Positions 14,503-46,945 of a stretch of DNA of 64,000 nt are shown in pieces (the first letter of the stretch is position 1; every line of letters begins with the position of its first letter). The position numbers were made by a program, and so were the translations under genes. The stretch is from Treponema sp. (GTDB lineage Bacteria; Spirochaetota; Spirochaetia; Treponematales; Treponemataceae), in NCBI GenBank assembly GCA_017551545.1, contig JAFZLJ010000055.1:35-64034 (forward strand). Direction: 5' to 3'. The notes beneath the pieces are model-generated. The model ran no database searches and was not told the origin of the DNA. It saw only the letters and a program-made list of their open reading frames with translations.

Positions 14503-15680
14503 GTCAGTTACAGAGGGTTCTTTCGCTTGGTGGAAGGACAATTACTTTAATTGGTACAGCACATGTTTCGGCCGAAAGTGTTGCAGAAGTTGAAAATGCT
14601 ATAAGAGAGCTTAAGCCCGACAGTGTTGCAATAGAACTTGATGAAAAACGTGCGGATTCAATCCGTAATAAAGATAAATACCGCGAACTTGATATTGTAA
14701 AGGTTTTGCGTCGTGGTGAAGGCTTTCTTCTTCTTGCAAACCTTGTACTTGCTTCTTTTCAGCGCAGAATGGGCCAGAATGTAGGCGTAAATCCTGGTGA
14801 TGAAATGCTTGCAGCAATGCGTGTAGCCGATGAATTAAATATTCCTACCGTTATGGCAGACCGCGCTATTCAAATTACACTTAAGCGTGCCTGGGCTAAA
14901 AATTCCTTCTGGGGAAAATGCAAGCTTTTGGCAACACTTCTTTCAAGTGCTTTTTCTAAAGAAGATATGAGCGCTCAGGACATTGAAAACATCAAGGAAA
15001 AGAATGAGATGGATTCAATGATGAACGAGCTTTCGGAATACATGCCTGTTGTAAAAGAAGTTCTTATTGATGAGCGAAACACTTATCTTGCCGATAAAAT
15101 CTGGAACAGCCCTGGAAATAAGGTTGTTGCAGTCCTTGGTGCAGGACATCTTGATGGTGTAGTAGAAAATCTTGAAAAAATAGCAGGCGGACAGAAAGTG
15201 AATATTGACGAAATTGATGTTGTTCCTCCAAAAACTGTTGCTGCAAAGATTATTCCTTGGATTATTCCTGTTTTGATTGTTGTATTATTTGTTCTAGGTT
15301 ATATTTTTGGTGGACGTGAAATCGCTAAAGAAATGATATTAACCTGGATTTTCTGGAATTCTGTATGTGCTGGGGTTGCAACTATAATAGGTGCTGGACA
15401 TCCGATAACAATACTTGCTGCTATTATAAGTGCGCCACTTACTTCTTTATGTCCGACTATTGGTTGTGGTTTTGTGACTGCAATAGTTCAGGCTATTGTG
15501 TGTAAACCCAAAATTCGGGATATTGAAACTCTGCAAGATGATGTAACATTTAGAGGATTCTATAAAAATCGAATTCTTCGAATTTTATTAATATTTATAT
15601 TATCATCTATTGGTAGTACAATTGGAACATTTATTGCTGGTGGAAAGATGGGTGGAATCGCAGCAGCGTCCAATGCATAG
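14499..15680 (+). CDS. TraB/PrgY (TraB/GumN family) protein with C-terminal TM helices
   Basis: LIGTAHVS..S, VAIELD..R, PG.EM..A, ADR.I.ITL.RAW, LIDERN, VLGAGHL.G; ATGA overlap with the TPR gene. Confidence 0.9.
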   Translation: MSQLQRVLSLGGRTITLIGTAHVSAESVAEVENAIRELKPDSVAIELDEKRADSIRNKDKYRELDIVKVLRRGEGFLLLANLVLASFQRRMGQNVGVNPGDEMLAAMRVADELNIPTVMADRAIQITLKRAWAKNSFWGKCKLLATLLSSAFSKEDMSAQDIENIKEKNEMDSMMNELSEYMPVVKEVLIDERNTYLADKIWNSPGNKVVAVLGAGHLDGVVENLEKIAGGQKVNIDEIDVVPPKTVAAKIIPWIIPVLIVVLFVLGYIFGGREIAKEMILTWIFWNSVCAGVATIIGAGHPITILAAIISAPLTSLCPTIGCGFVTAIVQAIVCKPKIRDIETLQDDVTFRGFYKNRILRILLIFILSSIGSTIGTFIAGGKMGGIAAASNA

Positions 15681-44356: not shown

Positions 44357-46883
44357 TTAGTTCGAAGCCTCTTGTAAATTACTTGCATTAATGTAAAGAG
44401 CTGGGACTACGCCTGGTTTTTCATCTTGGACAACTGTTCTTGTTATTTCGACAGTGGTCGTTATTCCATTACTATCAACAAAATAATCCTTGTTATGCGA
44501 ACTGGTCTCATTAATATTCCAAGCTCTATTATCATGAAAAGCGTTATTCAACCACCAGCTGCCATCTGCTGTACTGTTTGTAGCTTGGGCATAAGCTGTT
44601 AAGGTTTTTTTAGCGTAAGAATATTCTGAGCCAAGATCATCTGTGTTTTTTAAAAGGAAAATCTTTTCGTTTTCAAGAGTACATATTTCTGCATCATTAT
44701 TGTTTTTGCGATATGCCTTAAAGCTTACAGAAGAATTGAGTATTGTATTTGTAGCGGTAGTTGTTACAAAAGCTTTTTGTAAGAATCCTTTATTATAATA
44801 TAATGAATTAATATCTTTCATATATTCGAGATTACTTACTGGAACGAGAGTCGGATAAGATAAGCCGTTTAAGAATGCTCTTATTGTAGACACTTCATAG
44901 TCATTTGGATAGTACGTTACTCCCTCATTGTTTCTTTGTTGATTAGGCCCGTCATAGAAAGGAACATCTGCTGTAAGGATTTTTTCTGAAACCAAAAGCA
45001 CATTGTTAGAATTAGAATCACCTATAACGCGCCAGATAATAGGTTCATACTTGTAATAATTACCATTGTATTTTTCATAGAAATAACCGTCTGTACCAAG
45101 GTACCAGTCAAGACAAATTTTGTCTTGAGGATACAGGCTGACATTTGTGCTGTCAATTAGCGATTGAGGGTAGTTTCCGAATTTACAGTAAGTACCTCCA
45201 TCATAACTTCCTGAATAATTGGTGATTTTTGTTGGTATAGACGCAATGGCATCGCTTCTTATATAGAAGGTAGCAGCTTCTCCTACATTTCCTGCGTAAT
45301 CTATATATTTTAAAGTAACTTCATAAAGTGCATCATATTCAAATTTTTTTATTATATACGAAGTAACTGTGTTGTTAGAAGTTTCAACTTCTGTTGCTCC
45401 AACTTTTTTAAAAGAATAGTATAATTGAGCAAAGTCTGGTGCAGCAGTAGGTTCTGACCAGCTAAAACAAAAATCCCTATATACTTTATCTTCAAAACTT
45501 ATGCTGGTAAGTACAGGTTTTTCACTTATTCCAGTCTTGTCTATTGCAAAATAATACTTTTTGCCGTCAGAAGGATATGTAGAATCATTACCGGCTTTAT
45601 CTTTAAAGGTAAAGCTTATTGCGTAAACTCCTTCATCGATAATCTCTTTTGCTTTTGTTTTTAATAAATCTATTGTTCCCGTATAAGAGGCTTTTAAAGA
45701 ATCTACTGTCGAATAAATAATTTGGATATCTCTGGAAGAAGATGCGTTTTGATAGTTCTTTCCCTTAACCTTTTCAACCTTCATCCAGAAAGAAGTATCC
45801 GGACCAGATTGTCCGTCGGAGTTTTCTTCTACTGAAATATCAAGGGCAATTTGGAATTTATTATTTTTGATAAAATCGTTTTTCAGATCAGAAACTTTAG
45901 TAAACTTTTTTGAAGTTTTAGAAGTATTATTAATTTTTAATGTAAATTTATCAGTTACAAGAGGGAATTTATCGGTCTGATTATTAACTGTATAGCTCCA
46001 TTTTTTGAATTCCTTCATTTGTACGTCTTTTTCATATCCGGAAGAATTTGCTGTGTAGAAAAAGCCTGCTTCAATACATACAAGAAGACTGGTGTAAGAT
46101 ACAGGTGGCGAACTCTTTTTTGGTGGTATTATAAGTGTAATATTGTTGTTTTCAAAAGTCGGAGCATCAAAAAGACTTAAAAGATTGTCGCCGGTTTTTT
46201 TATTTGTTATTTTAATATTTTTAAAATATATTTCATTTCCAATTTTATATTTATAATATCTTTGTGTTCCATCAGGCAGTGTTACTGGCTCAAAGAAAGT
46301 GACAGAGTCTTTTAATCTATCATATTCATCTGTTGTAAAATAAATGGAATCTGTGTTCATTTCGTAGTCAAAATCAACTGTAATAACTGACTCTCTGATT
46401 ACATTTGCTGTTTCAGGGTATTTAGAAATAACAGAAGGGCGTTCTGCAAGAACTACGCTTATACAAAGTTCCATTCCGTCTGAAGGCTTTTTATTAAAAG
46501 AACAGGTTGTATTTTCTGAAGTAGGAGAATCAATAAAAAGAAAATCTCCGTTTTTTAATTCTGTTCCGCTGGCAGAATCTATAATTTTCCAGCATATAAA
46601 TTCATAAGATTCGAAAGGTTTAAAGGATATTTCAAAGGAATCTGTTACCTTTTTCATTACCTGGTTACCAACAGGATTCTGCATTGTTCCCTGACCAGGA
46701 TAATCAAAGGTTATTTTATACGAAGGTGCATTTGCATAATCAATATATTTTTCTATCTGCTGTTTTGTTTCTCCGGCATTTAAGAAATCATTACAGGATG
46801 AGAGCAGAAAAAGATTTACTATACATAATAACGCCCCCCCCCAGTATAGTAATTTTTGAAAGCTTAAAATGTGTGTGTGTCAT
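44357..46883 (-). CDS. Frameshifted (putatively phase-variable, OFF) surface lipoprotein with Ig/FN3-like domains and a DUF6273-like C-terminus
   Basis: SD GGGAG + ATG 46883, (AC)5 and G9 tracts, then an out-of-frame lipobox FLLSSC continuous with ORF 44357-46684; FG.YPQ, YEPI.WRV, S.IR.FLNG, WWL...GVVPAL motifs. Confidence 0.8.
46834..46880 (-). repeat. Simple sequence repeats G9 (46834-46842) and (AC)5 (46871-46880)
   Basis: Plus strand shows C9 and (GT)5 within the first 50 nt of the gene. Confidence 0.92.
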
Positions 46884-46945
46884 GTAAGGACTCCCTCTGA
46901 AATATTCCCCTTATTTTATCAGAAAAGAGTCTTTATTGCTAGTTT

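Follow-up and report, generated by a model that had tools for sequence, protein, structure and literature searches.

A probable poly-G ON/OFF switch in the signal-peptide codons of a Treponema lipoprotein gene

In gonococcal pilC, a poly-G run lies within the signal-peptide codons, and a change by a single G switches translation of the surface adhesin (PMC13017665). Here we describe a lipoprotein gene with a run of nine G (G9) in its signal-peptide codons, located on the minus strand of a 64,000-nucleotide (nt) stretch of DNA from a Treponema sp. This whole stretch, which we call the window, is C60:35-64034 of genome G000, a 3.01-Mb draft with 38% G+C that consists of 157 contigs and is 89.5% complete. 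By our own estimate the probability is a little below nine in ten that the G9 run is a hypermutable homopolymer, i.e. a contingency locus which, by slippage, acts as an ON/OFF switch in the signal-peptide codons. The closest precise parallel is provided by pilC1 and pilC2 of Neisseria gonorrhoeae, in which a G homopolymer in signal-peptide codons controls expression by ON/OFF frame-shifting. PilC, however, is a pilus tip adhesin, whereas the window gene encodes a lipoprotein; Neisseria has two such genes, whereas the family here counts at least 14 paralogues, of which six carry tracts; and Neisseria is a pathogen, whereas the present organism is a gut commensal spirochaete, in which switching is deduced from sequence.

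Poly-G tracts are also found in Treponema pallidum, i.e. at the promoters of tprE/G/J, tprL and tp0126 as well as within open reading frames (ORFs), with 7-11 G measured within isolates; the tp0126 tract is found between the -35 hexamer and the -10 hexamer, for which the optimal distance is 17 nt (PMC7864442, where Opa is mentioned as well). T. pallidum thus resembles our case in belonging to the same genus and in having G runs of at least 8 nt tied to surface-protein genes, and the tp0126 layout, which is also that of N. meningitidis porA, matches six promoter tracts of G000. In contrast to these well-studied cases, which are transcriptional, the tract in the window would operate at the translational level and belongs to a lipoprotein family without tpr homology. 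Repeats in the leader codons of multigene families whose members switch independently, generating a combinatorial surface, are known for Neisseria opa and for outer-membrane genes of Helicobacter pylori. There, the repeats are pentanucleotides (CTCTT) or dinucleotides (CT) rather than the G homopolymer found here. For a gut commensal, Bifidobacterium breve, an ON/OFF switch of a sortase-dependent pilus by G-tract slippage is reported (PMC9187656); this case differs in concerning Gram-positive pilus genes, with no signal-peptide position and no large paralogous family. Homopolymers have been counted in a study of bovine treponemes, with the fewest in commensal T. ruminis, and a term search of that article found no mention of phase variation (PMC8049484). 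Overall, the mechanism proposed here is not new, and the finding is well documented but not surprising; the novelty for gut treponemes suggested by an earlier reading of this DNA, which used the sequence without any database search (the sequence-only reading), is weakened by the mechanism being textbook knowledge.

At its 5' end, the gene is made up as follows (all on the minus strand).

46891..46897, minus: ribosome-binding site GAGGGAG, 7 nt 5' of the start codon, read from the sequence and kept in all syntenic alleles.
46881..46883, minus: ATG start codon of the lipoprotein gene; the ON alleles L030 and L031 use the homologous ATG.
46871..46880, minus: (AC)5, codons 2-5 (T-H-T-H), with no variation shown (sequence read and allele comparison).
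46843..46870, minus: 28-nt spacer between (AC)5 and G9 (sequence read).
46834..46842, minus: G9 homopolymer, the putative switch, OFF here, encoding the Gly-Gly with which the hydrophobic core begins (sequence and allele lengths).
46793..46795, minus: lipobox Cys codon (L-S-S-C), predicted lipidation site in the long frame (inspection and paralogue conservation).
46791..46883, minus: 30-codon frame read from the ATG in the OFF state (G9), plus stop (translation).
44357..46879, minus: long open lipoprotein frame including the stop, 841 codons from the ATG if the frame is restored (translation).

All of the elements on which the sequence-only reading was built, i.e. a Shine-Dalgarno sequence with the ATG at 46883, (AC)5, 28 nt and then G9, were located where it had placed them. 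G9 spans codons 14-17, between this ATG and the lipobox Cys, and its position 39 nt downstream of the ATG rules out a promoter-spacer layout for the window gene. The frame read from the ATG ends, as had been claimed, after 30 residues at a TAA (46793-46791). The long frame encodes, in this order, Gly-Gly, a hydrophobic stretch, L-S-S-C and about 810 further residues; no ATG is met in this frame before that at 46684, and it is from there that gene callers report an ORF of 775 amino acids (aa). Translation bore out that this frame is one base out of register and open back through the lipobox without a start codon, with the calculated offset (46883-46684 = 199, i.e. 1 mod 3) being correct. The intervening frames are also stop-free as claimed, yet about 12 open codons are nothing unusual. 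The lipobox Cys followed by the motif N/D-F-L ... Y-A-N-A-P-S-Y is conserved across the paralogues. By inspection, the signal peptide of P0013, the product of a natural ON allele, has Lys7 and Lys10, a hydrophobic core at about residues 11-27 and L-A-S-C with Cys31, where the window frame has L-S-S-C. All features of a lipoprotein signal peptide are thus present, namely positive charges in the n-region, the hydrophobic core and, near the expected distance of about 20-30 residues from the start, the Cys of the lipobox, from which lipidation is predicted. Scanning 46884-46945 for the sigma-70 consensus yielded no convincing promoter, with the number of sites not above that in shuffles.

An important question is whether the tract actually differs in length between natural alleles. 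Syntenic alleles were drawn from three 90% clusters of the protein database, with synteny defined by a TP_0752-like/SPOR gene on one side and an AAA_14/DUF4143 gene on the other; labels beginning with L refer to assembled contigs with alleles, P to database proteins and C to contigs or paralogues of G000, and G009 is a related species. The sample tags of these records suggest gut metagenome series, presumably ruminant studies. Alleles with (AC)5 behind the start codon (AC-type) have G9 in the window, in L021-L024 and in L025/26, and G8 in L030. Alleles of the second type, which have AAAAACACAAA instead, carry G9 in L032-36 and G8 in L031, and a variant of this type with a G also before the tract has G10 (L027-29) or G11 (L037/38). 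The comparison of syntenic alleles called for by the sequence-only reading thus revealed tracts of G8, G9, G10 and G11. Only the G8 alleles are in frame, i.e. L030 with 841 aa (P0013) and L031 with 856 aa (P0015), whereas G9 alleles yield an OFF product of 30 aa and G11, in the C-type allele, one of 21 aa. P0013, with its G8 tract and 841 aa, carries exactly the N-terminus that had been predicted for a change from G9 to G8. A pattern scan of JGI metagenome contigs for the tract flanks produced no further alleles.

There are also four pairs that differ in a single G on otherwise identical haplotypes. L031 (G8, ON) and L032/L033 (G9, OFF) differ by one G in 5,346 bp. For the paralogue on C81 of G000 (G9, ON) and L045 (G8, OFF) this is one G in 3,045 bp, for that on C134 of G000 (G9, ON) and L046-48 (G10, OFF) one G in 4,067 bp, and for L049 (G9, OFF) and L052 (G10, ON) one G in 3,730 bp. 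Single-G differences in such surroundings are the mark of a tract mutating far faster than the DNA around it. Together with the G8 ON alleles, these haplotype pairs support that part of the sequence-only reading according to which strand slippage within signal-peptide codons switches the lipoprotein ON and OFF. Judged by its sequence, the locus has what is expected of a contingency locus, i.e. a tract in the 5' coding region, toggling between a full and a short frame upon a change by one unit, and length polymorphism on identical flanks.

Tract length in the genome as a whole points in the same direction. G000 contains 504, 50 and 6 G/C runs of 5, 6 and 7 nt, respectively, followed by 4 of 8 nt, 7 of 9 nt and 3 of 10 nt. 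Based on the approximately ten-fold fall per extra base between 5 and 7 nt, about 0.7 runs of 8 nt or more are expected, but 14 are seen; this approximately 20-fold excess is the kind of tract-length signature by which simple-sequence contingency loci are recognized. Ten of these 14 runs sit at the 5' ends of lipoprotein genes: four in signal-peptide codons of paralogues of the window gene, with two more paralogues having G7, and six in promoter spacers ahead of other lipoprotein genes. A count of G9 words in G000 and 40 relatives revealed long G runs in 38 of these 41 genomes of the order; as these are overlapping counts without normalization for G+C, they can be termed widespread and nothing finer.

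The paralogues, at least 14 in G000, have a lipoprotein signal peptide in common, and the N-terminal part that follows the Cys is conserved among them. Six of them carry G7-G9 at the homologous Gly-Gly position and are a mixture of ON and OFF states, as scored from their ATG starts.

C81: G9, in frame (ON).
C134: G9, in frame (ON).
C60 (window gene): G9, out of frame (OFF).
C14: G8, out of frame (OFF).
C86: G7, out of frame (OFF).
C147: G7, out of frame (OFF), read from ATG starts.

In the remaining paralogues, which are fixed in frame, the run is interrupted or short (GGGTGGGG, G4, G3) or missing altogether, with C53 having a G10 in the promoter spacer rather than in signal-peptide codons. 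Family members in G009 show a similar picture: G9 and interrupted tracts leave the gene in frame, and G10 puts it out of frame.

We propose that slipped-strand mispairing during replication would add or remove one G. With 8 (or 11) G in the window allele, translation from the ATG at 46883 would read through the signal peptide, the lipobox Cys and about 810 more codons, and the ON product would be an 841-aa prolipoprotein composed of a lipid anchor, a β-sandwich stalk and a DUF6273 head with a C-type-lectin-like fold. With 9 or 10 G, translation would end after 30 or 21 codons, respectively, and no protein would be exported; as read from its tract, the sequenced population is in this OFF state. 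If each of the six tract-bearing paralogues (of at least 14) switches independently, the population would display changing subsets of surface proteins. Slippage is the presumed cause of the length changes, and host immunity, phage or niche might be the selective agent.

Several points weigh against this interpretation. The window haplotype itself has been seen only with G9, in five assemblies that possibly represent few samples, and the nearest ON allele, L030, differs from it at 84 of 5,328 positions. The OFF alleles were retrieved through truncated ORFs, so the ratio of ON to OFF among the samples is biased. Moreover, not every tract varies at such a sampling depth: the one promoter-class tract checked, the G10 in front of the C53 gene, showed no variation, being the same in all five other assemblies. 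Finally, tract lengths come from assemblies alone, so that we can only infer reversibility within a clone, and surface exposure of the lipoprotein is a prediction.

The G tract is bracketed by a 9-bp inverted repeat, which was found by folding the sequence as DNA.

46844..46852, minus: left arm TTACTATAC of the inverted repeat bracketing the G tract (DNA fold).
46816..46824, minus: right arm GTATAGTAA of the inverted repeat (DNA fold).

The fold has a 9-bp stem and a 19-nt loop, with -4 kcal/mol and a z-score of -3.4. The tract may thus be part of a small conserved cis-module in which TTACTATAC and GTATAGTAA place it in a hairpin loop, an idea that we regard as rather unlikely. Such a module could tune the rate of slippage, or could be a portable cassette spread among lipoprotein genes in coding as well as promoter positions. 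The rare heptamer ACTATAC, of which there are 159 copies in 3 Mb counting both strands, is found just 5' of the G tracts of the family, encoding T-I-L there, and in the window it forms the inverted repeat with GTATAGTAA. In two unrelated settings it adjoins a G tract as well, namely in the promoter spacer on C101 (29095-29103) and, in a different reading frame, in a short-chain dehydrogenase gene on C152 (near 15207-15225).

Location in a hairpin loop is also what would favour a leaky OFF state, in which RNA polymerase slippage or ribosomal frameshifting on G9 would tune the level of expression as a modifier of the switch. That RNA polymerase can slip on long homopolymers is established for bacteria. 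The sequence data do not require it, however, as length polymorphism in the DNA explains the ON and OFF forms, and no frameshift-stimulating signal turned up, although no search aimed at such signals was made. We therefore consider such leakiness improbable.

Still less probable is the proposal of the sequence-only reading that (AC)5 and G9 are two slippery tracts acting in combination, with several routes between ON and OFF and alternative N-regions of the signal peptide. Arithmetically, an extra AC unit (+2) does put the ATG into the long frame, through an intervening frame that is stop-free, and it is unexpected to find one of just five such repeats in 3 Mb directly after the start of a tract-bearing gene. 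The arithmetic of a change from (AC)5 to (AC)6 therefore stands, but none of the three 90% clusters that contain the syntenic alleles includes the 842-aa product it implies. The (AC)5 repeat is constant throughout the eight AC-type sequences, in which three lineages with different gene bodies and G lengths are represented, and the other allele type, with AAAAACACAAA in its place, differs by three C-to-A substitutions and not in the number of units. AC/GT repeats in G000 show plain decay (47 with four units, five with five, none longer) and thus no enrichment, and a second repeat is missing from all five other tract-bearing paralogues. Moreover, dinucleotide tracts that phase-vary are usually longer than five units. 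With AC invariance, substitutions, no 842-aa product and no enrichment, combinatorial action of two tracts is arithmetic without support. Most likely, (AC)5 just represents codons 2-5 of one allele type and is no second switch; a slowly acting second switch would be a weaker variant of the same idea.

Could the true tract be G8 and the gene intact, with G9 due to an error in sequencing or assembly? Homopolymers are error-prone and G000 is an incomplete draft in many contigs. Yet G9 is agreed upon by independent assemblies (L021-L026, L032-L036) that stem from different assemblers and runs, and this agreement, together with one-G differences between haplotypes, argues against an error. The G10 of the C53 promoter is called alike in six assemblies, which shows calls at such tracts to be reproducible, and long G/C runs cluster at the 5' ends of lipoprotein genes and not across housekeeping genes. 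An error is thus hardly to be expected. A decaying pseudogene, in which the frameshift would be permanent and tract variation a by-product, is just as implausible, for although five of the seven sampled protein variants are out of frame, the five OFF lineages all keep 770-781 codons open at a nucleotide divergence of 10-36%, the ratio of non-synonymous to synonymous substitutions (dN/dS) is below 1 over most of the gene, the tract is always the sole lesion and ON and OFF versions of one haplotype coexist in nature.

If the lipoprotein is switched in this way, the nature of the protein becomes of interest. Its ON form is predicted to consist of two major parts, with approximate boundaries.

45161..46723, minus: β-sandwich (Ig/Fn3-like) domain chain, residues ~54-575 of the ON form (AlphaFold model m7afaea8fa5c7, Foldseek).
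44360..45160, minus: C-terminal DUF6273 C-type-lectin-like head, residues ~575-841 (model m50c34d9878e3, and PF19789 in relatives).

The full-length AlphaFold model, based on a 54-sequence alignment and with a predicted local distance difference test score (pLDDT) of 87.7, has its signal peptide disordered and followed by a short helical segment, after which comes the β-sandwich chain, for which Foldseek returned only generic multi-Ig/Fn3 ectodomains. A separate model of the C-terminal ~265 residues (pLDDT 85.8) matched residues 48-291 of 9qa6, the N-terminal DUF6273 domain of the immunoglobulin A (IgA) peptidase of Thomasclavelia ramosa, with a Z-score of 14.8, a root-mean-square deviation of 3.6 over 187 residues and a Foldseek E-value of 2.5e-5. 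The next matches are many C-type-lectin-like domains with Z-scores of 4-6, with T. denticola TvpA (2y3c) at 5.7. At the sequence level, Pfam gave only a sub-threshold match to Big_13 for the window protein, and no match to PF19789 for either the window protein or P0013; P0015 reaches 26.4 against a cut-off of 23.5 for PF19789 and homologues 40-62 bits. Nothing meaningful was retrieved when a profile of the head domain was run against PDB sequences. The family comprises 891 representatives at E <=1e-3. From these models, an architecture of lipid anchor, stalk and binding head suggests a surface protein of the adhesin or receptor type.

DUF6273 is described as C-type-lectin-like and as a domain that retroelements target in receptor-binding proteins of phages (PMC10743442), that of the IgA peptidase has no function assigned (PMC12402451), and domains of this kind typically form variable heads that bind ligands (PMC10743442, PMC12402451). 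The fold of the window head is common to the T. ramosa IgA peptidase domain, phage tentaclins and T. denticola TvpA. Unlike DUF6273 or lectin heads that are retroelement targets, the window gene has no template repeat that could be found: BLAST of the gene against its own 89.5% complete genome revealed no second copy of any part of its 3' end, so that within this assembly the head is not targeted by a retroelement.

Between alleles, the head is the part that varies most. Nucleotide identity is about 98% in the flanking genes, 64-83% in the distal two thirds of the lipoprotein gene and 64-78% in the head, and dN/dS amounts to 0.5-0.65 for the gene as a whole and reaches about 1 in the C-terminal head. 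Of the short intergenic promoter region there are two types, 61% identical to each other, which recombine independently of the gene-body types. In comparison with L025-L037, the lipoprotein gene (44357-46945) by its sequence is a hypervariable mosaic locus within one species.

OFF alleles are annotated from internal or alternative starts, with 775, 781, 770, 748, 1089 and 1072 aa (the ORF from 46684 in the window as well as P0002, P0003, P0004, P0014, P0016, P0018, P0020 and P0021). Since such annotations lack the signal peptide, the lipoproteins look cytoplasmic in public protein sets; with callers reporting N-terminally truncated cytoplasmic proteins (775, 781, 770 aa), inventories of surface proteins from metagenome-assembled genomes of treponemes undercount them. 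What the locus adds is a clean example, at the level of sequence, of phase variation at multiple loci of a gut commensal spirochaete, as seen in haplotypes of 3-5 kb with a one-G difference. In total, G000 features ten lipoprotein genes with G runs of at least 8 nt, two with G7, and a retroelement targeting two other lipoproteins. Whether multi-locus phase variation is truly restricted to pathogens or reflects a bias in databases has been asked in a review (PMC11868660), and genomes such as G000 bear on this question.

In the promoter spacers, G8-G10 tracts are found at C14:16028, C21:83195, C41:8322, C53:4230, C101:29104 and C145:5739. All six lie between TTGACA-like and TATAAT-like hexamers, 34-43 nt 5' of a lipoprotein ATG, with a spacer length of 19 nt in five cases and of 17 nt in C101.

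The diversity-generating retroelement of G000 is located at C86:35670-38758 and C41:7208-8330 and includes the following features.

C86:37739-38758, minus: reverse-transcriptase ORF.
C86:37494-37649: template repeat of the retroelement.
C86:36600-36756: variable repeat at the 3' end of a gene for a 359-aa lipoprotein, with 27 of 30 mismatches at template adenines.
C41:7210-7354: remote second variable repeat at the end of a gene for a 357-aa lipoprotein, with 24 of 25 mismatches at adenines.

The target gene on C41 has a G9 in its promoter spacer (TTGACA, 19 nt, TATTAT). With a variable repeat at one end and this spacer at the other, a single lipoprotein thus appears to be under retroelement hypermutation as well as a poly-G promoter switch.

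At C152:15198-15206 (minus strand), a G9 splits a gene of the short-chain dehydrogenase type (Rossmann motif TGATGGIGK), with the N-terminal part stopping just past the tract and the remainder being in the +1 frame; by this arrangement, it is possibly a phase-variable enzyme gene. Runs of 8-9 nt without a lipoprotein start are located at C104:47963-47970, C126:8898-8906 and C155:62512-62519, and their settings differ: one lies where an apparent acetyltransferase-like ORF has its 3' end, with 62 nt left to the gene that follows, another is situated between genes in a repeat region rich in G+C, and a third precedes a TATAAA-like hexamer.

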